From positions 192,001 to 256,000 of the forward strand of contig CBDCRW010000007.1 of NCBI GenBank assembly GCA_965221125.1: a DNA stretch of 64,000 nt, read 5' to 3'. Source of the DNA: Alphaproteobacteria bacterium. Its GTDB lineage: Bacteria > Pseudomonadota > Alphaproteobacteria > UBA828. The notes below the pieces were generated by a model. It was given only the letters and a program-made list of their open reading frames with translations. It was not told the origin of the DNA and did no database searches. Position 1 is the first letter of the stretch. The number at the start of each line of letters is the position of its first letter. Of this stretch, positions 4,117 through 64,000 are shown in pieces. The position numbers were made by a program, and so were the translations under genes.

Positions 4117-5841
4117 ATGGCTGAGGGCGAGGCGCAAGCGGGTGCCCACCCCTGGGAGAAGTCCTACCCGGAGAATGTCGACTGGAACGCGCCGCTGCCG
4201 AAGGCGCCGCTGCAGCGCCTGCTCGACGATGCGGTCGCCAAGTTCGGAGACCGCCCGGCGATCGACTTCATGGACAAGGTCACGACCTACCGCGAGCTTG
4301 GCGACCTCGCGAACCGTGCGGCCGAGGGTTTTCAAAAGCTCGGCGTCGGCAAGGGCACCAAGGTCGGCATCCTGCTGCCCAACTGCACCAACTTCGTGGC
4401 CATCTACTACGGCGTGCTGAAGGCGGGCGGGACGGTTGTCAACGTCAACCCGCTCTACGCCATCGAGGAGATCAAGAGCCAGATCGAGGATTCCGAGGCC
4501 GATATCCTGGTCACCCTCGACCTCTCCATCCTCTACGACAAGGCCCGCATCGCGCTCGACCAGACGCGGCTCACCCACCTGGTGATCTGCCCCATGGCGG
4601 AGATGCTGCCGGGGCTGAAGAAGCTGCTCTTCCCCATCGTCAAGCGCAGCGAGATCGCCAGGATCCCGCGCGATTCCCGCCACGTGTTCTTCCGCACGCT
4701 GACCGACAATTCCGGCAGGCCCACGCCGGTCGAGATCGAGGTCGACGACGACATCGCGGTGCTGCAGTACACCGGCGGCACCACCGGCACGTCCAAGGGC
4801 GCGATGCTGACCCACGCCAACCTCAGCGCGAACGTGGCGCAAGGGGCGATGATGATGCCCGGCGCCGAGGAAGGCCGCGAGGTCATGATCGGCGTGCTGC
4901 CGCTCTTCCATGTCTTCGCCATGGCCGTGGTGATGAATTTCAGCATCCGGATCGGCGCCAAGATGGTCCTGCTGCCGCGTTTCGAGCTGGATAACGTGCT
5001 CAAGGTCGTACACAAGAAGCGGCCGACTTTCTTCCCCGCGGTGCCGACGATCTACATCGCGATCAACGGCCATCCGGACGTGGCGGCCGGCAAGTACGAC
5101 CTCTCCTCCATCAAGCTCTGCCTCTCCGGCGGCGCGTCGCTGCCCCGCGAGGTGCAGGAGAAGTTCCAGGAGCTTTCCGGCTGCACGCTGGTGGAGGGCT
5201 ACGGCCTCAGCGAAACCTCGCCGATTGCGACCTGCAACCCGACCTCGCCCGGCGGCAGCCGCGAAGGCTCCCTCGGCGTGCCGGTGCCGGGCACCGTGGT
5301 CGACATCTGCTCCATCGACGACCCGGAGAAGGTGCTGCCGCAAGGCGAGATCGGCGAGATCTGCATCTCCGGCCCGCAGGTGATGAAGGGCTACTGGAAG
5401 CGCGACGAGGAGAACGAGCGCGCCTTCGCCGGCGGCCGCTTCCACACCGGCGACGTCGGCAAGATCGACGAGGACGGCTACGTCTACCTCATCGACCGGC
5501 TGAAGGAGGTCATCATCGCCGGCGGCTACAACGTCTATCCGCGCCACGTGGAGGAGGCGATCTACAAGCACCCGTCGGTGCTGGAGGTGACGGTCATCGG
5601 CGTCGACGACGCGCGGCGCCAGCAGACGGTCAAGGCCTTCGTCCGGCTCAAGGACGGCGAGAGCCTGACCGCCGACGCGCTCACGGACTTCCTCAAGGAC
5701 AAGCTGTCGCCCATCGAGATGCCGAAGCAGATCGAATTCCGCGACGAGCTGCCGAAGACGATCATCGGCAAGCTTTCCAAGAAGGAGCTGATCGCCGAAG
5801 AGGCCGCGAAGCAGGGCGCGGCCGCTGGCGGCGCCGCATGA
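4117..5841 (+). CDS. fadD: Long-chain fatty acid-CoA ligase
   Basis: HPWEKSYP N-terminus, YTGGTTGTSKG, GYGLSE, TGDVG, LPKTIIGK. Confidence 0.9.
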   Translation: MAEGEAQAGAHPWEKSYPENVDWNAPLPKAPLQRLLDDAVAKFGDRPAIDFMDKVTTYRELGDLANRAAEGFQKLGVGKGTKVGILLPNCTNFVAIYYGVLKAGGTVVNVNPLYAIEEIKSQIEDSEADILVTLDLSILYDKARIALDQTRLTHLVICPMAEMLPGLKKLLFPIVKRSEIARIPRDSRHVFFRTLTDNSGRPTPVEIEVDDDIAVLQYTGGTTGTSKGAMLTHANLSANVAQGAMMMPGAEEGREVMIGVLPLFHVFAMAVVMNFSIRIGAKMVLLPRFELDNVLKVVHKKRPTFFPAVPTIYIAINGHPDVAAGKYDLSSIKLCLSGGASLPREVQEKFQELSGCTLVEGYGLSETSPIATCNPTSPGGSREGSLGVPVPGTVVDICSIDDPEKVLPQGEIGEICISGPQVMKGYWKRDEENERAFAGGRFHTGDVGKIDEDGYVYLIDRLKEVIIAGGYNVYPRHVEEAIYKHPSVLEVTVIGVDDARRQQTVKAFVRLKDGESLTADALTDFLKDKLSPIEMPKQIEFRDELPKTIIGKLSKKELIAEEAAKQGAAAGGAA

Positions 5842-5895
5842 TCGCGGCCTGACGCCGCGACGTACCGCACCAGACAGAGCAAGAGGCCCCAGCCC

Positions 5896-7032
5896 ATGAA
5901 CAATGCCGTCATCGCCGGCTATGTCCGCTCGCCCTTCCACTTCGCCCACAAGGGCGCGCTGGTCGAAAAACGCCCCGACGACCTCGCGGCCGAGGTCGTG
6001 CACGGCCTGCTCGACCAGACCGGCGTCGACCCCGCCGAGATCGAGGACCTGATCATCGGCTGCGCCTTCCCCGAGGGCGAGCAGGGCTTCAACATGGGCC
6101 GCATCGTGGCGCTCATCGCGGACCTGCCCATCTCGGTCGCCGGCGCCACCGTCAACCGCTTCTGCGGCTCGTCCATGCAGGCGATCCACATCGCCGCCGG
6201 CGCGATCCGCATGGATGCGGGCGAGGCCTTCATCTGCGCCGGCGTCGAATCCATGAGCCGCGTGCCCATGGGCGGCTTCAACCCGGCGCCGAACCCGGAC
6301 CTCTACGAGAAGAACGAGGGCGCCTACATGTCCATGGGCGAGACCGCCGAGAACCTCGCCCGCAAGTACCAGATCACCCGCGAGGAGCAGGAGTCGCTCG
6401 CGGTCGCGAGCCACGCCCGCGCCACGTCCGCCTGGGACGACGGCAGGTTCGCCGGCGAGGTGATCGCGGTCGAGACCGGGGACGGCACGGTGGAGCGCGA
6501 CGGCTGCATCCGCCCCGGCACCAGCGCCGAGGTGCTCGCCGGGCTGGAGCCCGCCTTCGATGCCGACGGCACGGTCACCGCCGGCACGTCCTCGCCGCTC
6601 ACCGATGGCGCGGCCGCCGTGCTGGTCTGCACCGAGGACTACGCCAAGCGCAACGGCCTCTCCGTGCTCGCCCGCATCAAGGCCATCGCGGTGGCCGGCT
6701 GCCTGCCGGAGATCATGGGCTACGGCCCCGTCGTCTCGTCGGAGAAGGCGCTCGCCCGCGCCGGGATCAAGATGGCCGACATCGACGTGGTCGAGCTCAA
6801 CGAGGCCTTCGCCGTCCAGGCCCTCGCCTGCGTGCGCGAGCTTTCCATCGACCTAGAGCGCATGAACATCGACGGCGGCGCCATCGCCATCGGCCACCCC
6901 CTGGGCGCCACCGGCGCGCGGATTACCGGCAAGGCCGCCCAAATCCTCCGCCGCGAGGACAAGCGCTACGCGCTCGCCACCCAGTGCATCGGCGGCGGCC
7001 AGGGTATCTCCACCGTGCTTGAGGCCGCCTGA
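5896..7032 (+). CDS. Acetyl-CoA C-acyltransferase (thiolase)
   Basis: NRFCGSS catalytic Cys, NEAFA, GHPLGATG, CIGGGQG. Confidence 0.93.
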   Translation: MNNAVIAGYVRSPFHFAHKGALVEKRPDDLAAEVVHGLLDQTGVDPAEIEDLIIGCAFPEGEQGFNMGRIVALIADLPISVAGATVNRFCGSSMQAIHIAAGAIRMDAGEAFICAGVESMSRVPMGGFNPAPNPDLYEKNEGAYMSMGETAENLARKYQITREEQESLAVASHARATSAWDDGRFAGEVIAVETGDGTVERDGCIRPGTSAEVLAGLEPAFDADGTVTAGTSSPLTDGAAAVLVCTEDYAKRNGLSVLARIKAIAVAGCLPEIMGYGPVVSSEKALARAGIKMADIDVVELNEAFAVQALACVRELSIDLERMNIDGGAIAIGHPLGATGARITGKAAQILRREDKRYALATQCIGGGQGISTVLEAA

Positions 7033-9359
7033 TGGCGATCGAGAAGGCCGCCGTCATCGGGGCGGGTCTCATGGGCGGCGGCATCGCCGCCCACATCGCC
7101 AATGCGGGCCACGACGTGGTGCTGCTCGACATCGTGCCCGACGGCGCGAAGGACCGGAACGCGCTGGCCGAAGGCTCGGTGGCGCGGATGCTCAAGACCG
7201 ACCCCGCGCCCTTCATGGAGAAGTCGGACGCGAAGCGCATCGCCACCGGCAATGTCGAGGACCACCTGGACCTCGTGAGCGACGCCGACTGGATCGTCGA
7301 GGCGGTGATCGAGAGGACCGACGCCAAGCAGGCGATCTACCGCCAGCTCGATTCGGTGCGGAAGGCGGGCTCCATCGTCTCCTCCAACACGTCCACCATC
7401 CCCTCCGCCACGCTGCTGGACGGGATGCCCGAGTCGCTCGCGCGCGACTTCCTCATCACCCACTTCTTCAACCCGCCGCGCTACATGCGGCTGTTGGAAG
7501 TAGTGGCGGGGCCGGCGACCCGGGCCGACGCGGTGGCGGACGTCTGCGACTTCGCCGACCGCAAGCTCGGCAAGGGCGTGGTGCCCTGCAACGACACGCC
7601 GGGCTTCATCGCGAACCGCATCGGCACCTACTGGCTCGTCGCCGCGGTGCGCGCTGCGGTCGAGAACGGCGTGACGGTGGAGGAGGCGGACGCGGTGCTG
7701 GGCCGCCCCGTCGGCGTGCCCAAGACCGGCGTCTTCGGGCTGATCGACCTGGTCGGCCTCGACCTGATGCCGCTGGTGGGCCGCAGCCTGCGCGACGCGC
7801 TGCCGGAGAGCGACCCCTTCCACGCGGTCTACGACGAGCCCGCCTTCATCACCGAGATGATCGAGAGCGGCTACATCGGCCGCAAGGGCAAGGGCGGGTT
7901 CTATCGACTGAAGCCCGGCTCGGACAAGAAGGAGAAGGAGGTCCGCGACCTCGCCACCGGCGAGTACGGGCCGGCCCAGCGCCCGCGGCTGGAGAGCGTG
8001 GAGCAGGCGGGCCGCTCGCTCCGGGCGCTCTTCGAGCACGACGACAAGACCGGCGCCTACGCCTGGCAGGTGATGTCGGGCACGCTCGCCTACACGGCCG
8101 GCCTGGTGCCGGAGATCGCCGACGACGTGGAGGCGGTGGATCGCGCCATGCGCCTCGGCTACGCCTGGAAGCGCGGCCCCTTCGAGATGATCGACTCGGT
8201 CGGCGCCGACTGGTTTGCCGAGAAGCTTGCGGCGGAGGGCAGGGAGGTCCCGCCGCTGCTGCTGGCGGCAGCGGCGCAAGGCGGCTTCTACCGCGTGGCG
8301 GACGGCCGCGCGACCCATCTCGCCGGCAGCGGCACGCACGTGCCGCTCGCGCGGCCCGACGGCGTGCTCCTCCTCTCCGACATCAAGCAGACCGCGAAGC
8401 CGCTCGCCCGCAACGCTTCGGCCAGCCTCTGGGACATCGGCGACGGCGTCGCCTGCCTCGAATTCCACTCGAAGATGAACGCGCTCGACACCGAGATCAT
8501 GGCGCTGGTCGCGCAGTCGGTGGAGACCGTCGGCGGCGGCATGACGGCGCTCGTGATCCACAACGAGGGCAGCAACTTCTCCGTCGGCATGAATCTGGGC
8601 CTCGCCCTCTTCGTCGTGAACGTCGGCGCTTGGCAGATGATCGAGGAGACGGCGAAGCAGGGGCAGGACGCTTTCAAGGCGCTCAAGTTCGCGCCCTTCC
8701 CCGTGGTGGGCGCGCCCTCCGGCATGGCGCTCGGCGGCGGCTGCGAGGTCCTGCTGCACTGCGACGCGGTCCAAGCCCACGCCGAGAGCTACATGGGCCT
8801 CGTCGAGGTGGGCGTCGGCATCGTGCCCGGCTGGGGCGGCTGCAAGGAGATGATGCTGCGCGCGCTCGATTCCGGCCGGCCCGGCTTCGGCGGCGCGATG
8901 CCGGCGATCTCCAAGGTGTTCGAGGCCATCGGCATGGCCAAGGTCTCGCGTTCCGCAAAGGAGGCCCGAAAGCTCGGCTTCCTGCGCGAGGGCGACGGCA
9001 TCACCGCCAACCGCGACCGCCTGCTGGCCGATGCCAAGGCGAGGGCGCTGGCGCTGGCGGAGGACTACGCGCCGCCCGAGCCTGCCACCGTCAAGCTTCC
9101 GGGCAAGACCGGCCGCGTCGCGCTCAAGATGGCGGTCAAGGGGCTCGCCAAGACCCGCAAGGCGACGGCCCACGACCTGGTGGTGGTGGAGCACCTCGGC
9201 AACATCCTCACCGGCGGCGACACGGACACGACGAAGGAGGTCCCGGAGGACCGCCTCTCGGACCTGGAGCGCGAGGCGCTGCTCGCGCTGATCCGCACGC
9301 CCGCCACCATCGCCCGCATGGAGCACATGCTGGAGACCGGCAAGCCCCTAAGGAATTAG
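7032..9359 (+). CDS. 3-hydroxyacyl-CoA dehydrogenase/enoyl-CoA hydratase (FadN-like)
   Basis: GAGLMG, SSNTS, HFFNPPRYM, PGFIANRIG, C-terminal crotonase domain ALGGGCE, GKPLRN end; ATG overlaps the thiolase stop. Confidence 0.92.
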   Translation: MAIEKAAVIGAGLMGGGIAAHIANAGHDVVLLDIVPDGAKDRNALAEGSVARMLKTDPAPFMEKSDAKRIATGNVEDHLDLVSDADWIVEAVIERTDAKQAIYRQLDSVRKAGSIVSSNTSTIPSATLLDGMPESLARDFLITHFFNPPRYMRLLEVVAGPATRADAVADVCDFADRKLGKGVVPCNDTPGFIANRIGTYWLVAAVRAAVENGVTVEEADAVLGRPVGVPKTGVFGLIDLVGLDLMPLVGRSLRDALPESDPFHAVYDEPAFITEMIESGYIGRKGKGGFYRLKPGSDKKEKEVRDLATGEYGPAQRPRLESVEQAGRSLRALFEHDDKTGAYAWQVMSGTLAYTAGLVPEIADDVEAVDRAMRLGYAWKRGPFEMIDSVGADWFAEKLAAEGREVPPLLLAAAAQGGFYRVADGRATHLAGSGTHVPLARPDGVLLLSDIKQTAKPLARNASASLWDIGDGVACLEFHSKMNALDTEIMALVAQSVETVGGGMTALVIHNEGSNFSVGMNLGLALFVVNVGAWQMIEETAKQGQDAFKALKFAPFPVVGAPSGMALGGGCEVLLHCDAVQAHAESYMGLVEVGVGIVPGWGGCKEMMLRALDSGRPGFGGAMPAISKVFEAIGMAKVSRSAKEARKLGFLREGDGITANRDRLLADAKARALALAEDYAPPEPATVKLPGKTGRVALKMAVKGLAKTRKATAHDLVVVEHLGNILTGGDTDTTKEVPEDRLSDLEREALLALIRTPATIARMEHMLETGKPLRN

Positions 9360-11357: not shown

Positions 11358-12413
11358 ATGAGTGACATAGCCGCGTGGCCCGAGCGCTTCGCCGACGAGG
11401 CCGCGCTCGAGGATTTCATGAGCGCGCCGGACGAGGCGCTGCGCGCCTCCCTCGCGCGCGTCGACGGCGACATCGTCGTGCTCGGCGTCGGCGGCAAGAT
11501 GGGGCCGACCCTGGCCGGCCTCGCCAAGCGCGCCGCGCCGCACAAGCGCGTGGTCGGCGTCGCCCGCTTCTCCGACCCGCGCGTGCGCGAGACGCTCACC
11601 GCCTGGGGCGTGGAGACCATCCAGTGCGACCTGCTCGACCGCGCCGCGGTGGCGGCGTTGCCCAGGCTCCCCAACGTGGTGTTCATGGCGGGGCGCAAGT
11701 TCGGCGCCATCGGCGACGACGACCTGACCTGGGCGATGAACGCCCACGTGCCCGCCATCGTCGCCGAGACCTTCCGCCAGTCCCGGATCGTCGCCTTCTC
11801 CACCGGCTGCGTCTATCCCTTCGTCGACGTCCGCCACCAGGGCGCAACCGAGGAGACGCCACCCACGCCGCCGCCCGGCGAGTACGCCAACTCCTGCGTC
11901 GGCCGCGAGCGCCTGATCCGGTATTTCTCGCGCCGCCACGGCACGCCCGGGCGCCTCGTGCGACTCAACTACGCCATCGACATGCGCTACGGCGTGCTGC
12001 ATGACGTGGCCCGCAAGGTGCGGGACGGCGTGCCCATCGACCTCGCCACCGGCCACGTCAACGTCATCTGGCAGGGGGATGCCAACGCCATGGCGCTCCG
12101 CTGCTTCGAGCACTGCACCGTGCCGGCCGCCCCCCTCAACGTGAGCGGGCCGGAGACGGTGAGCATCCGCGCGCTGGCGGCAGCCTTCGGCGCGCGGCTG
12201 GGGCGCGAGCCCGTGTTCGCGGGCGAGGAGTCGCCCACCGGCTGGCTCACGAATGGCGCGCAGGCCTTCGGCCTCTTCGGCTATCCGCGCGTGCCCCTGG
12301 GGGCGATGATCGACTGGATGGCGGACTGGGTCGCGCGCGACATGCCGAGCCTCGCCAAGCCCACCCAGTACGAGGTGAGGGACGGCGTGTTCGCGGCGCC
12401 GACCGCCTCATGA
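11358..12413 (+). CDS. NAD-dependent epimerase/dehydratase family protein
   Basis: LGVGGKMG Rossmann variant, FSTGCVY, YANSC, RLNYAID. Confidence 0.85.
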
Positions 12414-13471
12414 GCCTCGCCTGGGGCGACGTGCCGGGGCCGGTGCGGGCGACGCTCGCGCGTGGCGTGGTGATCCCCGCGCACCCCCTCGCGCTCGACG
12501 CCGGGCGCAGGCTGGATGCGGAGCGGCAGCGCGCGCTCTCGCGCTACTACATCGATGCCGGCGCGGGCGGGCTGGCCGTGGGCGTCCACACCACGCAGTT
12601 CGCGATCCGCGACGCCGGGCTCTACGAGCCGGTGCTGACGCTCGCCGCCGAGACCGCCGACGCGTGGGCCGATCGCCCGCTGGTGCGGATCGCGGGCCTC
12701 GTCGGGCGCACGGAGCAGGCGCTCGCGGAAGCGGATATCGCCCTCGGCCTCGGCTACAACGCCGGCATGGTGAGCCTCGCCGCCTTCGCCGGCGCCAGCG
12801 AGGACGAGCGGCTGGAGCACTGCGCCCGGCTCGCGGCGCGCATCCCGCTCGTCGGCTTCTACCTGCAGCCTGCGGTGGGCGGCGTCGTGCTCGGCCCCAC
12901 TTTCTGGCGCCGGCTCGCGGCGCTGGAGAACGTGGTCGCGATCAAGGTCGCGCCCTTCAACCGCTACCGCACCCTCGACGTGGTGCGGGGCGTCGTCGAG
13001 GCCGGCGCCGAGGGGCGCGTGACCCTCTACACCGGCAACGACGACCACATCCTGCTCGATCTCGTCACGCCCTACCGCCTCGTGCGGGGCGACGAGGCGG
13101 TGACGGTGCGCATCAAGGGCGGGCTGCTCGGCCACTGGAGCGTCTGGGTCAAGCGCGCCGTGGAGATACTCGACCGCGCCCATGCGGCGGTGGCGGCGGG
13201 CGCGATCGACCCCGACTTCCTCGCGCTCGACGCCCAGATCACCGACTGCAACGCCGCGCTCTTCGACGTCGTCAACGACTTCCGGGGTTGCATCGCCGGC
13301 TGCCACGAGGTGCTGCGGCGCCAGGGGCTCATGCGCGGCATCTGGTGCCTCGACCCGCAGGAAGGGCTGAGCCCCGGCCAGGCCGAAGAGATCGACCGCG
13401 TCTCGGCGGCCTACCCCCACCTCACCGACGACGACTACGTGAGCGCCAACCGCGCGCGCTGGCTCGCCTGA
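12410..13471 (+). CDS. Dihydrodipicolinate synthase family (class I aldolase-like) protein
   Basis: [29 protein letters not shown] (Schiff-base Lys); ATGA overlap with upstream gene. Confidence 0.85.
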
Positions 13472-13503
13472 GGGCGCGCGCCCCCGGCGGCAGAGGGAGC
13501 CCC

Positions 13504-58808: not shown

Positions 58809-59207
58809 TCATCCGGTGGCCTCGATCCGCTCCATGTCCTCGTCCGAGAGGCCGAAGTGGTGGCCGATCTCGTGGATCAGCACGTGGCGGACGACCTCCT
58901 CCAGGCTGTTGCCGGTCTCGACCCAGTAGTCCAGCAGCGGCCGGCGGTAGAGGAAGATCAGGTCCACGTCCTCGCGCACGTCGTGGACCCCGCTCTGGTC
59001 GAGTGAGACGCCCTGATAGAGGCCGAGCAGGTCGTAGGGGCTCTCCAGCTCCATGTCCTCCTGCACCTCCTCGCTGGGGAAGTCCACGACGCGGATCATC
59101 ACCGGATCGACCCGCGCGCGCAGGAATTCCGGGATGCGGTGGTACTCGCGATCGGCGATCAGCTCGATGTCGGCCGCGCTCGGCGCATGGGTTTTCCGCC
59201 CGCTCAT
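58809..59207 (-). CDS. Zincin-like metallopeptidase family protein
   Basis: LLGLYQG, IFLYRRP, HEIGHHFG. Confidence 0.88.
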   Translation of the reverse strand: MSGRKTHAPSAADIELIADREYHRIPEFLRARVDPVMIRVVDFPSEEVQEDMELESPYDLLGLYQGVSLDQSGVHDVREDVDLIFLYRRPLLDYWVETGNSLEEVVRHVLIHEIGHHFGLSDEDMERIEATG

Positions 59208-59330
59208 GGCGCCAAGCCTAAAGCCAATGGAACCTCAGAGAAATCGCGCGGTGTGGCGGCACGGGTGTGTCCACCTGCGGGGGCGCTATACTGCGCCGCT
59301 TCGACAATCGGAGGCGGGGAGGCCGGAAGG

Positions 59331-60161
59331 GTGAACAACAGGGAAGCGCTGCTGCGCGAGCTGCGCGAGCACGCGCTGCAGATCAGGCGCAACACGTGGC
59401 GGGCGCTGCGTGCGGCGGGCTCCGGCCACATGGGCGGCTCGCTGTCTGCGGCCGACCTGCTCGCCGCGCTCTATTTCCACTACCTGAGGCTCCGCCCCGA
59501 CGAGCCCGACTGGCCGGAGCGCGACCGCTTCGTGCTCTCAAAGGGCCACGCCAACACGGCGCTCGGCGCGGTGCTGGCCCAGGCCGGCTTCGTCGACGAC
59601 GGCTTCATCGACACCTTCTATGGCTTCGAATCCCTCTTCGGCATGCACCCGGACATCAAGGTCCCCGGCGTCGAGATGTCGACCGGCGGCCTCGGTCACG
59701 GCCTCTCCATCGCCCTCGGCATGGCGCTCGGCGCCCGGCTGCAGCAGAACGGCGCGCGCACCGTGGTGATGCTGGGCGACGGCGAGCTGCAGGAAGGCTC
59801 CAACTGGGAGGCGGCGATGGCGGCCGCGCACCTCGCGCCGCTCTCGCTCACCGCCATCGTCGACTACAACAAGGTGCAGCAGAGCGCCCACGTCGCCGAC
59901 CTGCTGGGGCTGGAGCCGCTGGCCGACAAGTGGCGCGCCTTCGGCTGGCAGGTGAGCGAGTGCGACGGGCACGACATGGAGGCCATCGTCGATGCCCTCG
60001 ACGCGCTGCCCACCGCCCCCGACAAGCCCGCGCTCCTCATCGCCCATACGGTGAAGGGCAAGGGCACGAGCTTCGCCGAGGACACCTACCTCTGGCACAA
60101 CAACGCGGTGAGCGAAGAGACCTACGAGAAGGCCATGGCCGAGCTGGGAGGGCAAGCATGA
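59331..60161 (+). CDS. Transketolase N-terminal subunit
   Basis: GHMGGSLS, DRFVLSKGH, GDGELQEG, HTVKGKG; GTG start. Confidence 0.9.
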   Translation: MNNREALLRELREHALQIRRNTWRALRAAGSGHMGGSLSAADLLAALYFHYLRLRPDEPDWPERDRFVLSKGHANTALGAVLAQAGFVDDGFIDTFYGFESLFGMHPDIKVPGVEMSTGGLGHGLSIALGMALGARLQQNGARTVVMLGDGELQEGSNWEAAMAAAHLAPLSLTAIVDYNKVQQSAHVADLLGLEPLADKWRAFGWQVSECDGHDMEAIVDALDALPTAPDKPALLIAHTVKGKGTSFAEDTYLWHNNAVSEETYEKAMAELGGQA

Positions 60162-61138
60162 GCGCGCCGCAGCCGGGCAACGGGGCCGAGCCCGCCTGGG
60201 TCAAGGCGGCGGCCGATCAGTCGCGCCTCGCCTTCGGGCTCGCGGTGACCGAGCTGGGGCGTCGCGACGAGCGCGTGGTGGCGGTCTCCGCCGACACACT
60301 CGACCTGATCGGGCTGCGGGGCTTCATCGACCATGCGCCCGAGCGCGTCATCGACGTCGGCATCGCCGAGCAGAACGCCATGGGCGTGGCCGCCGGCCTC
60401 GCCACCACCGGGCTCCGCCCCTTCGTCTGCGGCTACGCGCCCTTCATCTCGGCGCGCTCCATGGAGCAGGTGCGGAACGAGGTCGCCTACGCCGACCAGC
60501 GCGTGGTGATCGGCGCGGCCGCGAGCGGAGTCTCGCTCGCCGTCTCGGGCGGCACCCACCATGCGCTGGAGGACCTCGCGCTGATGCGGAGCTTCCCCAA
60601 CATGACGGTGCTGGTGCCGGCGGACGCCCACGAGGCGTGGCACGCGACGCTCGCGACCGACGAGATCGACGGCCCCGTCTACCTCCGCCTCGGCGGACGC
60701 GTGCCGGAGCGCCCGGTGACGCCGGTCGATGCGCCCTTCAGCCTGGGCAGGGCCACGCGGCTCGCCGAGGGCTCGGACGTCGCCATCGTCGCCTGCGGCG
60801 CCCTGGTGCCGCAGGCCGTGGATGCGGCGGCCACGCTCGCCGATCAGGGCGTGGGCGCGCGGGTGCTCAACATGTCCACCATCAAGCCCTTGGACGAAGA
60901 CGCCATCCTCGCCGCTGCCGAGGAGACGCGGGGCATCGTGACCGCCGAGGAGCACCACCTCACCGGCGGGCTCGGCGGCGCGGTGGCGGAGCTTCTCGCC
61001 GTGCGCCGGCCGACGCCCATGCGCATGGTCGGCATGCCCGACGAGTTCGCGTGCGTGGGCCCCACCGACAGGATCCGCGCGCGCTACGGCATGAGCGCCG
61101 GGCACATCGTCGACGCCTGCCTCGACCTCTTGGGCTGA
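60158..61138 (+). CDS. Transketolase C-terminal subunit
   Basis: GIAEQNA, GTHHALED, GPVYLRL, EEHHLTGGLG; ATGA overlap. Confidence 0.9.
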   Translation: MSAPQPGNGAEPAWVKAAADQSRLAFGLAVTELGRRDERVVAVSADTLDLIGLRGFIDHAPERVIDVGIAEQNAMGVAAGLATTGLRPFVCGYAPFISARSMEQVRNEVAYADQRVVIGAAASGVSLAVSGGTHHALEDLALMRSFPNMTVLVPADAHEAWHATLATDEIDGPVYLRLGGRVPERPVTPVDAPFSLGRATRLAEGSDVAIVACGALVPQAVDAAATLADQGVGARVLNMSTIKPLDEDAILAAAEETRGIVTAEEHHLTGGLGGAVAELLAVRRPTPMRMVGMPDEFACVGPTDRIRARYGMSAGHIVDACLDLLG

Positions 61139-61254
61139 CCCGCCCGCTCCGGCCGCGCCCTGCTTGCGTCGGCTGCGCGATGGAATGAGAATGGCGGGCG
61201 TTGCCGGGCTGGCTGCCGCGCCATGCCGGCACAATCGGCGTGCGGGAGGCCGGA

Positions 61255-62754
61255 ATGTCGGAGATGCTCGAGCGTTCCGAGTGGTACGACATCGCGCGGG
61301 ACACCAACTGGACGCCCTCCTACGTCTCGCACGAGGAGCTGTTCCCGCCCCAGATGGGGGATCCCTACGACATCCCCGTCGAGGAGTGGGAGACCTTCGA
61401 CGAGCCCTACAAGGTCTCCTACCGCGAGTACGTCAACATCCAGCGCGAGAAGGATTCGGCCGCCTATTCGGTGAAGGCGGCGCTGGCGCGCTCGAAATTC
61501 TACGACCAGGCCGACGAGGGCTGGGCGAGCGTGCTCAAGCTGCACTACGGCGCCGTCGCGCTCACCGAGTACCAGGCCTGCCAGTTCCAGGCGCGGATGT
61601 CCCGCTTCGGCCCGTCGCCGGCCATGCGCAACATGTCGGTCTACGGCATGCTCGACGAGATGCGGCACACCCAGCTGCAGCTCTTCTTCCCGCACGAGCT
61701 GGTCCATCTCGACCGCCAGTACGACTGGGCCCACCAGGCGCAGCACTCCAAGAACTGGGCGGTGCTCGGCGGCCGTCACGCGATGGACGACATCATGATG
61801 ACGCGGGATGCCATCACGTCCTCAGTCATGGTCTCGTTCGCCTTCGAGACCGCGCTCACCAACCTGCAGATGATCGGGCTCTCCACCGACGCCGCCAACC
61901 TGGGCGATCACACCTTCTCGAACCTGATCACCAGCATCCAGTCGGACGAGGCCCGCCACGCCCAGCTCGGCACCCCCACCATCGAGATCATGATCCGCAA
62001 CGGCCGCAAGGAGGAAGCGCAGCAGGCCATGGACATCGCGCTCTGGCGCGTCTGGCGGCTCTTCGCGATCACCGTCGGCATCCCGATGGACTACTACATC
62101 CCGCTCGCGCAGCGGCACATGTCCTTCAAGGAGTTCATGCACGAGTGGGTCATCGACCAGTGGGAGCGGCAGGTGCAGGACCTCGGCCTGGAGCGACCGA
62201 GGTACTGGGACATCTTCCTCCTCGACATCGACAACCACCACCACTGCCAGCAGGGCGGCATCTGGTCCTGGCGGCCGACGGTGTGGTGGAATCCGCCGGG
62301 CGCCGTCGGGCCTGCGGAGCGCGAATGGCTCGAGGAGAAGTACCCCGGCTGGAACGAGAGCTACGGCAGCTACTGGGACGTGATCACCAACAACCTGCTC
62401 CAGGGCCACGAGGAAAAGACGCATCCCCAGTGCATCCCGATCATCTGCAACATGTGCCAGATCCCGATCTCGCACCGGCCGGGGCCGGAATGGGGCGCGC
62501 GGGCGTATCAGCGCGAGTACGGCGAGCGGCGCTACAACTTCTGCACCGAGGTCTGCCGCTGGATCTTCGATACCGACCCGGAGCGCTACAAGGACCACGA
62601 GACCATCGTGGACCGCATGTATTCGGGCGAGATCGACCCGCCGACGCTGGACAACGTGCTCACGTACATGGGCATCGGCGTCATCAGCGAGGGCGGCCGC
62701 GACGGCTACGACTACCGCTGGGTCGAGGGTTTTCGGGCCCAGGCGGCGGAATAG
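61255..62754 (+). CDS. tmoA: Soluble di-iron monooxygenase hydroxylase alpha subunit (toluene monooxygenase type)
   Basis: NWTPSYV, ALTEY, DEMRH, FETAL, DEARH di-iron ligands, WLEEKYPGW, C-terminal YHS-like region. Confidence 0.92.
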   Translation: MSEMLERSEWYDIARDTNWTPSYVSHEELFPPQMGDPYDIPVEEWETFDEPYKVSYREYVNIQREKDSAAYSVKAALARSKFYDQADEGWASVLKLHYGAVALTEYQACQFQARMSRFGPSPAMRNMSVYGMLDEMRHTQLQLFFPHELVHLDRQYDWAHQAQHSKNWAVLGGRHAMDDIMMTRDAITSSVMVSFAFETALTNLQMIGLSTDAANLGDHTFSNLITSIQSDEARHAQLGTPTIEIMIRNGRKEEAQQAMDIALWRVWRLFAITVGIPMDYYIPLAQRHMSFKEFMHEWVIDQWERQVQDLGLERPRYWDIFLLDIDNHHHCQQGGIWSWRPTVWWNPPGAVGPAEREWLEEKYPGWNESYGSYWDVITNNLLQGHEEKTHPQCIPIICNMCQIPISHRPGPEWGARAYQREYGERRYNFCTEVCRWIFDTDPERYKDHETIVDRMYSGEIDPPTLDNVLTYMGIGVISEGGRDGYDYRWVEGFRAQAAE

Positions 62755-62787
62755 CCGGGCGGCATCGGTCGGGTTGTCGAGAGCGGC

Positions 62788-63057
62788 ATGAGCGCGTTCC
62801 CCATCCTGTCGCGCTTCCAGCAGGACGCGCACATCAAGACGGTCGAGATCGAGCCCGGCCAGACCATGGACGAGGTGGCGGCGACCTGCGCCTTCCACTC
62901 GATCGACCTGCACGTGGCGGACAGGCCGGGGCGGACGCTCCGCGTGCGGCCCACCACCGACGACGATTCCGCGCCGCCCTGGCCGCGCGACCTCACCGTA
63001 GAGCGAGCGGGTATCCGCTTCTACGACTGCATCGACATCTATTTCGAAGAGCCCTAG
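62788..63057 (+). CDS. tmoB: Monooxygenase hydroxylase gamma subunit
   Basis: MSAFP...TMDEVA...PRDLTV...ID pattern and position after the alpha subunit. Confidence 0.85.
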   Translation: MSAFPILSRFQQDAHIKTVEIEPGQTMDEVAATCAFHSIDLHVADRPGRTLRVRPTTDDDSAPPWPRDLTVERAGIRFYDCIDIYFEEP

Positions 63058-63101
63058 GCGCTCGCGCGCCGGGGATGCGCGCACCGGAGATGGAGTGACG
63101 C

Positions 63102-63437
63102 ATGGCGTTCAAGAAGGCCTGCACGCTGGACGACATCTGGGAAGGCGACATGGAGACCTTCGACGTGGACGGCACCGAGGTGCTGCTCGTCCACGTCAAA
63201 GACGAGGGCATTCACGCGATCCAGGCCCAGTGCCCGCATCAGGAGGTCGACCTCGTGGACGGCGACCTCGACGGCCGGGTGCTGACCTGCATGATGCACC
63301 TCTGGGAGTTCGACGTGGTGGCTGGCAAGGGGGTCAACCCCGACCATGCCGAGATCGCCCAATACCCGGTCAGGATCGAGGGCGAGGACGTCCTGGTCGA
63401 CGTCGAGGGCATCGAGCCCAAGCACGCCAAGCCCTGA
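63102..63437 (+). CDS. tmoC: Rieske-type ferredoxin of the monooxygenase
   Basis: WEGDM, CPHQ...CMMHLWEFD, GVNP. Confidence 0.9.
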   Translation: MAFKKACTLDDIWEGDMETFDVDGTEVLLVHVKDEGIHAIQAQCPHQEVDLVDGDLDGRVLTCMMHLWEFDVVAGKGVNPDHAEIAQYPVRIEGEDVLVDVEGIEPKHAKP

Positions 63438-63471
63438 CGGCCGGCGGCGGGTCGAGGGGGAAGGAGCGGCG

Positions 63472-63777
63472 ATGAGCGGTGACGGCGCGGCCCGCAAGAA
63501 CATGGTGGGCCCAGTGCTGCGCGTCGGCGAGGTCGCCGATGCCGTGGTCGAGGCCCTGCGGGAGGACAATCCGGATAAGGACTTCGTGGTCGAGGACCGC
63601 GTCGCCTACGTCCGCGCCGAGACCGAGGGCGAATGCGTGGTCCGCGCCGAAACCGTGGCGCAGGTGCTCGGCCGGCCCTTCAGGATCGCCGAGCTGGAGG
63701 TGAACCTCACCTCCTTCTCCGGCCGGATCGAGACCACCGACGACACCATGCGCTTCTACTTCGAGAAGAGGTTGTAG
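63472..63777 (+). CDS. tmoD: Monooxygenase effector/coupling protein (MmoB/DmpM family)
   Basis: VGPVLR, DNP, AYVR, LGRPF, SFSGRI; AAGGAG SD. Confidence 0.9.
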   Translation: MSGDGAARKNMVGPVLRVGEVADAVVEALREDNPDKDFVVEDRVAYVRAETEGECVVRAETVAQVLGRPFRIAELEVNLTSFSGRIETTDDTMRFYFEKRL

Positions 63778-63824
63778 TGGCCCGCGCGAAAGGCTTGCGT
63801 GCTCTCGCGCTCTGCCCCTTCCAC

Positions 63825-63917
63825 GTCATGGCCGGGCTTGTCCCGGCCATCCACGGGCCCGAACGGCCTCGGGAGGTCATCGCTGCGCTGGATGCGCGGA
63901 ACAAGTCCGCGCATGAC
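63825..63917. repeat. Alphaproteobacterial REP-like double-hairpin element
   Basis: GTCATGGCCGGGCTTGTCCCGGCCATCCA ... TGGATGCGCGGAACAAGTCCGCGCATGAC inverted pair. Confidence 0.8.
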
Positions 63918-63954
63918 GGCGTGGGGAGCGGCCGGGTTGCGGTCGGGGTACGGC

Positions 63955-64000
63955 ATGGCGGGTGAGGTGCAAGGCGGGCCGGTGCAGGCCGGGCCGGTCC
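63955..64000 (+). CDS. Probable start of the monooxygenase beta subunit (truncated by window)
   Basis: ATG 63955 in the expected tmoE position; only 15 codons visible, so based on gene order alone. Confidence 0.4.
   Translation, partial: MAGEVQGGPVQAGPV

Follow-up and report, generated by a model that had tools for sequence, protein, structure and literature searches.

How could a toluene monooxygenase (TMO) work when the gene cluster that encodes it holds neither the beta subunit of the hydroxylase nor a reductase? This question is raised by the end of the window, the 64,000-nucleotide stretch of DNA analysed here (G000:C7:192001-256000), which lies on a 905-kb contig of a sponge-associated marine alphaproteobacterium (assembly of 4.58 Mb in 7 contigs, 92% complete and 5.8% contaminated). 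There, four closely packed plus-strand open reading frames (ORFs; 61255-63777) encode a hydroxylase alpha subunit, a gamma subunit, a Rieske ferredoxin and an effector protein. We conclude, with a probability of roughly 75%, that these genes belong to a working four-component TMO-family monooxygenase encoded in pieces, whose beta subunit and reductase are supplied in trans.

A TMO-family cluster without beta subunit and reductase genes

An earlier note on this DNA, made from the letters alone, had read the genes as an alpha-gamma-ferredoxin-effector series. Indeed, the families Phenol_Hydrox, TmoB, Rieske and MmoB_DmpM are found in this order (Table 1), which is also that of toluene/o-xylene monooxygenase (ToMO; TouABCDEF, PDB 1T0Q) and toluene 4-monooxygenase (T4MO; TmoABCDEF, 3DHG, 1VM9 and 4WQM), two enzymes with the same four-component architecture. 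The alpha subunit matches the solved alpha chains TouA (1T0Q_A, 661 bits) and TmoA (3DHG_A, 649 bits) over its full length, and the ferredoxin matches T4moC (1VM9, 127.8 bits) in the same way. We read active-site residues in an 80-sequence alignment and in an alignment with TouA (1T0Q_A), in which query residue n+1 corresponds to TouA residue n. All six iron ligands announced by the note are present (TouA positions E104, E134, H137, E197, E231 and H234), as expected of a carboxylate-bridged di-iron site with two E...EXXH motifs, and Q141, T201 and N202 are retained, as it had stated and as in ToMO and T4MO, together with A107. Judged by its enzyme features, the query is a true TMO-family enzyme, that is, a group 1 soluble di-iron monooxygenase. 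The designation "group 1", already used in the note, is correct in the numbering of PMC11825192 (Yang, Kertesz & Coleman 2025); the query alpha is 53.6-57.3% identical to TMO-like plasmid genes, above the 35% group cut-off used there.

According to the same paper, TMO operons have six genes, in the order alpha-gamma-ferredoxin-coupling protein-beta-reductase; in 7/7 annotated reference operons, the last two are in place. The window locus departs from this order. The note had proposed reading downstream for the beta subunit, the reductase and pathway genes, and the contig is readable past the window end, but none of them is there: no beta or reductase gene lies within 17 kb downstream of the effector gene on the same contig, and the genes of the enzyme sit at three unlinked loci. 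The absence in cis is a feature of the gene organisation, not of the enzyme. Split encoding is not mentioned in the searched passages of PMC11825192, and literature searches (listings and abstracts) returned no paper that describes this clade or a split TMO operon. Within a known enzyme family, the query is a variant in its gene organisation, with three unlinked loci, and in the pocket described below.

The cluster might be what is left of a six-gene operon in decay, which has lost its beta and reductase genes and no longer makes an enzyme, as could be suspected from their absence in cis, from the REP-like (repetitive extragenic palindromic-like) element standing where beta would be, and from the six genes of TMO operons in PMC11825192. 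However, all four ORFs are intact in this genome and in 9 related species-level genomes, and the ratio of nonsynonymous to synonymous substitution rates (dN/dS) of alpha is 0.05-0.13 among related genomes, below that of the flanking BolA gene. The gamma subunit is 91-96% identical in relatives that likewise lack an adjacent beta gene, and effector relatives align across 101/101 residues. Every part is under purifying selection (Table 1; pairwise Nei-Gojobori estimates, 4-8 relatives per gene). Since, in addition, RNA-library contigs lie over the genes and an intact cognate beta gene is kept in 5/5 genomes of the lineage, as described in the next section, we give next to no weight to a dead remnant.

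Beta subunit and reductase genes elsewhere in the genome

Genome-wide, Phenol_Hydrox has four matches: the alpha subunit of the window (contig C7), a beta subunit on contig C6, and an alpha and a beta subunit on contig C3. The orphan C6 beta matches the beta subunits of ToMO and T4MO over its full length (403 bits, residues 5-327 of TouE, and 330 bits, respectively). It heads an operon of thiolase-like, enoyl-coenzyme A (CoA) hydratase and acyl-CoA dehydrogenase genes. In species-representative genomes, a scan located 52 loci, whose gene order we compared by tblastn. Nine of them (L015-L022 and L035) carry an alpha subunit 93-98% identical to the query, and the junction effector-BolA-deacetylase-DegP is found in 8/8 near relatives (alpha 93-97%) that reach past the effector; L015 (alpha 98%) stops inside the effector gene and stands outside this count. 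In 17 more distant marine loci (alpha 75-91%), a beta gene directly follows the effector gene, and its product is most like the C6 beta (60-81%). All four beta-less genomes that were searched, two of them complete chromosomes, encode an 85-88% identical beta, which shares its chromosome or contig with the alpha cluster, at a distance of 34, 64, 119 or 230 kb, and is followed by the thiolase-hydratase-dehydrogenase genes, as in our genome. In genome G005, beta is located inside the monooxygenase operon and the thiolase orthologue lies 0.9 Mb off without an adjoining beta gene, indicating a move of beta to the front of an operon that already existed. In the L027 genome, the effector gene is directly followed by a PRISE-like gene, and the beta (77%) is on another contig beside a flavin mononucleotide-dependent dehydrogenase, which makes a second, independent relocation.

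The trees tell the same story for both subunits. The 80 rows of the alpha tree (quick IQ-TREE run, LG+G4, with SH-like approximate likelihood-ratio test (SH-aLRT) values as the only support) consist of 60 sequences taken from the loci, 18 database proteins and 2 sequences of our genome. In it, the query belongs to an 11-row beta-less clade (SH-aLRT 99) nested among the full-operon sisters L023-L026. The 54-row beta tree unites the orphan betas in a single clade (SH-aLRT 98), whose sister group consists of the operon betas of L023-L026; the nine rows together receive 99. As the beta tree mirrors the alpha tree, the C6 beta is by descent the cognate of the window alpha, and we infer that the two pair.

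A different partner is at hand in the same genome. The alpha could work with the beta of a second di-iron operon on contig C3, or share parts with it, leaving the C6 beta to serve something else. This operon (L010, C3:406072-414769, monooxygenase genes at 410029-413552) has the order alpha-gamma-ferredoxin-effector-beta and likewise no adjacent reductase gene, so that at least the reductase would be shared or borrowed. Its alpha and beta, however, group with XamoA and XamoE of Xanthobacter Py2, far from the query, while the C6 beta is orthologous to the in-operon betas of the sister genomes and has co-diverged with the query alpha. Moreover, related genomes keep the orphan beta, and the other beta of G001-G005 is of a third type, not that of C3. 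A partnership with the C3 beta is therefore very unlikely.

For the reductase, the choice is narrow. A single protein of the genome contains an NAD_binding_1 domain, a reductase of 332 amino acids (aa) encoded on C6 (Table 1), which scores 181.8 bits against T4moF (4WQM), and the 92%-complete genome yields no BphA4-type Reductase_C domain. Orthologues of this reductase, 72-87% identical, are unlinked in 5/5 related genomes. By elimination, it is our candidate electron donor. The C7 cluster would form its own transcription unit among housekeeping genes, and the unlinked C6 beta would complete an (alpha-beta-gamma)2 hydroxylase. Electrons would pass from NADH through the Fer2-FAD-NAD reductase of C6 to the Rieske ferredoxin and on to the di-iron site, with the effector gating turnover, as in T4MO and ToMO; the reaction itself we can only predict.

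The candidate reductase gene lies in a locus (L067, C6:526278-534087) where it starts 4 nt after an alpha/beta hydrolase gene (best NCBIfam match, below cut-off, a UilS-type lactonase), with two PhyH-family dioxygenases, two EamA transporters and an OYE/FadH-type flavoenzyme around it. One of the EamA genes, 5 kb from the reductase gene, is the best match (60%) of the operon-linked EamA gene in L034. We considered on this ground that the locus might be a remnant of the ancestral operon site, an idea against which the low identity to the L029 reductase, given below, speaks.

Both the alpha and the orphan beta genes may be served by an ordinary sigma-70-type promoter. The motif upstream of alpha (Table 1) is a conserved island in otherwise divergent DNA among 14 aligned relatives, with GCTT invariant and GA.AATG nearly so, and the pattern CTTGCG-N18-GA(G/C)AAT is conserved upstream of the orphan beta in 5/5 genomes; the two loci thus each have a conserved predicted promoter of their own. 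A simple consensus scanner found no promoter upstream of alpha. The exact pattern occurs twice in the 4.58-Mb genome, before alpha and before the orphan beta (C6:288890). A specific promoter common to the two loci was nonetheless rejected and is kept as a hint only, since a relaxed form of the pattern matches about ten unrelated genes, as a general promoter would. Regarding expression, four metatranscriptome libraries from three studies yielded contigs that match alpha at 90-99% likeness, and one contig of 875 nt reaches from the end of alpha across gamma into the ferredoxin gene, which hints at transcription of the cluster. Most of the transketolase genes had no RNA contig over them in three of the four runs, to which we give no weight as evidence. 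Of the words sampled from the stretch, 30-47% are present in sponge-metagenome runs of several studies.

Several points weigh against an enzyme assembled from these parts. The alpha (C7) and beta (C6) genes are on separate contigs of a 7-contig, 5.8%-contaminated assembly; the worry over contamination is answered by the complete chromosomes of relatives, which show the same split. The C6 reductase shares only 33% identity with its counterpart in the L029 operon, where the order is alpha-gamma-ferredoxin-effector-beta-reductase-PRISE, likely the ancestral one; because of this low identity, the C6 reductase is not the ancestral partner. The RNA contigs are assembled, come from libraries picked for holding the gene and could reflect DNA carry-over, and the promoter pattern common to the two loci was defined after both sites had been seen.

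Table 1. Genes and other features of the monooxygenase system, with dN/dS ranges (positions refer to the window unless a contig is named)
Feature	Position	Strand	Evidence	dN/dS
Promoter-like motif CTTGCG-N18-GAGAAT (-35 TTGCGT, 17-nt spacer, -10 GAGAAT), 63 nt before alpha start	61163..61192	+	conservation	
Hydroxylase alpha, 499 aa, di-iron centre and C-terminal YHS	61255..62754	+	Phenol_Hydrox 3.5e-71, YHS 1.9e-08	0.05-0.14
Hydroxylase gamma, 89 aa, TmoB family	62788..63057	+	Pfam TmoB 8.4e-17	0.07-0.25
Rieske [2Fe-2S] ferredoxin, 111 aa, ligands CPH...CMMH	63102..63437	+	Pfam Rieske 6.7e-18	0.08-0.26
Effector/coupling protein, 101 aa, MmoB/DmpM family	63472..63777	+	MmoB_DmpM 2.3e-29	0.11-0.34
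REP-like repeat, two perfect hairpins, noncoding, marks cluster end	63808..63920	.	genome matches and fold	
Orphan beta	C6:288979-289971		full-length match to TouE	0.17-0.24
Candidate reductase, 332 aa	C6:532082-533080		Fer2+FAD_binding_6+NAD_binding_1	
BolA (comparison)				0.19-0.24
Transketolase-C (comparison)				0.12-0.15

Clade, substrate pocket and possible substrates

The note had proposed that the enzyme belongs to a separate clade. This agrees with the alpha tree, in which canonical enzymes are represented by proxies (P0091, Cupriavidus, Paraburkholderia and Marinobacter), TmoA and TouA themselves being outside the tree. The query is placed inside the TMO-family radiation, in a 43-row clade (SH-aLRT 100) that it shares with Reyranella, Pseudonocardia xishanensis and two Mycobacterium sequences. 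Another clade, of 13 rows, unites the canonical TMO-like sequences, and XamoA, the ELW1 "IsoA" and the C3 alpha lie on the outgroup side. P0091, a Pseudomonas sequence of the canonical clade, scores 866 and 821 bits against TouA and TmoA, as compared with 661 and 649 for the query. Sequence comparison thus gives good support to an uncharacterised clade, mostly of marine and sponge-metagenome bacteria, apart from the canonical toluene oxidisers. PMC11825192 describes uncharacterised TMO subgroups A and B, likewise known from genomes and from MAGs (metagenome-assembled genomes) alone, and its Table S3 lists two "Rhodospirillaceae sp." MAG proteins.

The substrate pocket sets this clade apart. 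Compared with TouA and 11 canonical rows, the query carries the changes listed in the note, I100V, a threonine at 103, A106Q, F175A/F176M, L192V, G199A/F200L and F205M, with one amendment: the threonine of its G103T is right, but TouA has E, not G, at this position. Relative to ToMO and T4MO, the pocket reads V100, T103, Q106, C108, Q109, F110, Q111, A175, M176, V192, L200, L203 and M205. Canonical rows have I100, F176, F200, M203 and F205 in 11/11 cases, where the query has V, M, L, L and M. In the marine subclade, V100, T103, Q106, Q109, Q111, L200, L203 and M205 are found in 27/27 rows and C108 in 24/27, while position 176 is M in 22/27, F in 3 and I in 2; M205 reaches nearly the entire 43-row clade. 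The remodelling claimed by the note is therefore a signature kept across the marine subclade rather than drift, ancient and maintained. In T4MO, positions 100, 103, 176 and 205 tune regiospecificity and substrate range. The ferredoxin follows the same pattern: it has CMMH where T4moC has CRAH (1VM9 alignment), as the note had seen, with CMMH in 9/9 beta-less relatives, C-x-M-H in 27/27 marine-subclade loci and C-x-A-H in most others. The marine sister operons (L026-L030, L034, L036, L041 and L056) have alphas 77-87% identical to the query, share its pocket signature and C-x-M-H ferredoxin, and also lie in the core genome beside housekeeping genes; they keep beta in the operon except in L027, L029 keeps the reductase as well, and a PRISE-like enone-reductase gene follows (9 loci).

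Does the system nevertheless oxidise toluene, benzene or phenol in ordinary aromatic hydrocarbon catabolism, with its genes merely scattered? The query is a clear family member with all catalytic residues, and because T201, N202, Q141 and A107 are kept, canonical TMO substrates stay open to it, a point that tells against a new substrate range. PMC11825192 regards aromatic hydrocarbons as plausible substrates of the uncharacterised TMO subgroups, and the two alpha/beta hydrolases, two Amidohydro_2 proteins and small VOC-family protein beside the orphan beta could form a ring-fission route. NCBIfam, however, gives these C6 neighbours generic names only and names none of them as a ring-cleavage equivalog. 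There is no phenol hydroxylase among the four Phenol_Hydrox matches of the genome, and no meta-cleavage operon, NtrC/XylR-type regulator or sigma-54 site nearby. The note had pointed out that no NtrC-type regulator, ring-cleavage gene or sigma-54 motif precedes the cluster, in agreement with the flanking families and a consensus scan: with up to 2 mismatches, no sigma-54 consensus is found between 60565 and 64000. ToMO and T4MO differ from the query in both respects, sigma-54/NtrC-type control and an adjacent aromatic pathway. The neighbours in the subclade are housekeeping genes or, in 9 loci, a PRISE-type reductase gene. Given, in addition, the position of the query outside the canonical clade and the pocket signature, an ordinary hydrocarbon TMO is possible but doubtful. 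On balance, we favour a role other than classical toluene catabolism, because the pocket has M/L/M for F176/F200/F205 together with the polar residues T103, Q106, C108, Q109 and Q111, and because the setting is that of a core genome without adjacent ring-cleavage genes. The non-toluene substrate proposed in the note is thus plausible.

Conserved neighbours gave no decisive clue to the substrate: the flanks are housekeeping genes and differ between lineages, and no conserved pathway gene points to one of the substrate classes listed in the note. Upstream genes across the relatives encode transketolase, glycerophosphodiesterase, insertion-sequence (IS) transposase, ribosomal proteins, UvrC, PanBC, glutamine synthetase or OmpA. 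A crude clustering of ORFs retrieved only PRISE, Abhydrolase_11 and Fe-ADH as recurrent, in one subgroup, and named no pathway. The recurrent partner is a PRISE-like Rossmann reductase encoded after beta or the reductase in the 9 loci, sometimes with a 2-oxoglutarate-dependent oxygenase and EamA exporters; our genome has only a 48% homologue of PRISE, elsewhere. An N-heterocyclic or imported substrate was also considered, on the basis of a Bmp/PnrA-type ATP-binding cassette (ABC) importer upstream in L024 and L025 and of rutB and yicO neighbours in Mycobacterium THAF192, and set aside, the link being confined to few loci.

Isoprene and other alkenes seem to be the province of the C3 locus. XamoABCDEF of Xanthobacter Py2 and the isoprene monooxygenase clusters belong to the same family and have the same gene order as the query. 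However, the query alpha is only 43-44% identical to theirs and falls in a separate clade, it lacks their D141 and M106/V108/T109/M110 pattern, and its flanks are devoid of their usual partners (glutathione transferase, dehydrogenases such as aldehyde dehydrogenase, CoA-transferase or coenzyme M pathway), to which the C3 locus fits instead. Genes for a family-III CoA-transferase, a LysR regulator, a short-chain dehydrogenase/reductase and a glutathione transferase precede the C3 operon; after it come an aldehyde-dehydrogenase-like gene and a transposase. Its glutathione transferase is an IsoI equivalog (334.9 bits, cut-off 300) and its short-chain dehydrogenase/reductase comes near IsoH (347.8 bits, cut-off 350), so that the locus looks like an isoprene-type degradation cluster; its beta groups with XamoE in the beta tree. 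With these genes and its XamoA-grouping alpha, isoprene or alkene oxidation would probably be the task of C3 and not of the C7 system.

We may also ask why beta left the operon. A speculative answer, improbable as it stands, is that marine Alphaproteobacteria, both sponge-associated and pelagic, have in this system a core-genome oxygenase for a polar biogenic compound and not for a hydrocarbon pollutant, and that the relocation of beta to the front of a beta-oxidation-like operon is adaptive, the hydroxylase assembling only when the downstream CoA-dependent pathway is switched on. If true, this would be control by subunit supply, which is not described for di-iron monooxygenases, and at least two independent departures of beta (in this lineage and in the L027 genome) would argue for selection over accident. 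Whatever the reason, TMO-family enzymes are valued as biocatalysts and as markers of hydrocarbon degradation, and counting genes of this clade as "toluene degradation" in metagenome surveys is probably wrong. An "incomplete" operon need not be dead: pipelines that demand co-located subunits would miss such an enzyme, and cloning the local cluster alone would give inactive protein.

Flanking genes and other gene arrangements

The cluster resembles its neighbours in the GC content of third codon positions (0.88-0.95), in keeping with the host-like codons reported in the note. Upstream lie genes for an FtsX/MacB permease, an ABC ATPase, a GDSL lipase, LigT, a zincin-like peptidase and a split transketolase. 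The transketolase-like pair (59139-61138; Transketolase_N at 59139-60161, then Transket_pyr and Transketolase_C) stops 116 bp before alpha, and adjoins it only in our genome and L015; in other relatives, a glycerophosphodiesterase-like gene, an IS transposase or ribosomal-protein genes stand between. Downstream, BolA lies just past the window and is followed by a histone-deacetylase-family gene (Hist_deacetyl) on the opposite strand and by a DegP-like protease gene. The note had extended the cluster over 61255..64000; this holds for the coding part, to 63777, the last 223 bases (63778-64000) being noncoding. They contain the REP-like element, whose hairpins have 9-bp stems and which recurs 6 times elsewhere in the genome (79-97% identity); the post-effector stretch as a whole folds no better than shuffles (z = -0.9), despite the hairpins in the fold. 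Rfam has zero matches in 60500-64000, and the one terminator-like site lies inside alpha, within chance expectation. At the orphan-beta locus, 2 kb upstream, a 595-aa ORF (C6:285199-286986, L068:1199-2986) combines DruA (Druantia) and DDE_Tnp_1 domains.

Other divisions of the subunit genes occur among the relatives. In L022, a divergent alpha-gamma-beta trio (4888-7748, minus strand; 69, 62 and 67% identical to the query set) lies directly upstream of the beta-less cluster; the trio has no ferredoxin or effector gene and the adjoining cluster has both but no beta, two complementary part lists placed back to back. L057 (8001-11176) and L059 (7-3095) have the order alpha-gamma-effector-beta (alpha 68%) without a Rieske ferredoxin gene, and L057 belongs to one MAG with L020, where the cluster includes a ferredoxin but no beta gene. 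In L037 (5265-10602) and L039 (550-5887), the genes stand in tandem as alpha-gamma-alpha-gamma-ferredoxin-effector-beta, with a single ferredoxin, effector and beta for two different alpha-gamma pairs (75-77% and 64% identical to the query); the pocket of the second alpha reads I100, P101, F176, T192 and F200. Alpha-gamma fusions also occur, in several database relatives of about 600 aa.

Genomes G001-G005 encode a further beta (L075-L079), 55-57% identical to the C6 beta, which groups in the beta tree with L053 and with the betas of Arenicellales- and Poriferihabitaceae-labelled MAGs (L062 and L064) and not with the C3 beta, indicating that the second monooxygenase differs between close relatives. 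In L024, the closest full-operon relative, an ankyrin-repeat protein is encoded about 0.9 kb downstream of beta (12391-13491); ankyrin repeats are often noted in sponge symbionts.

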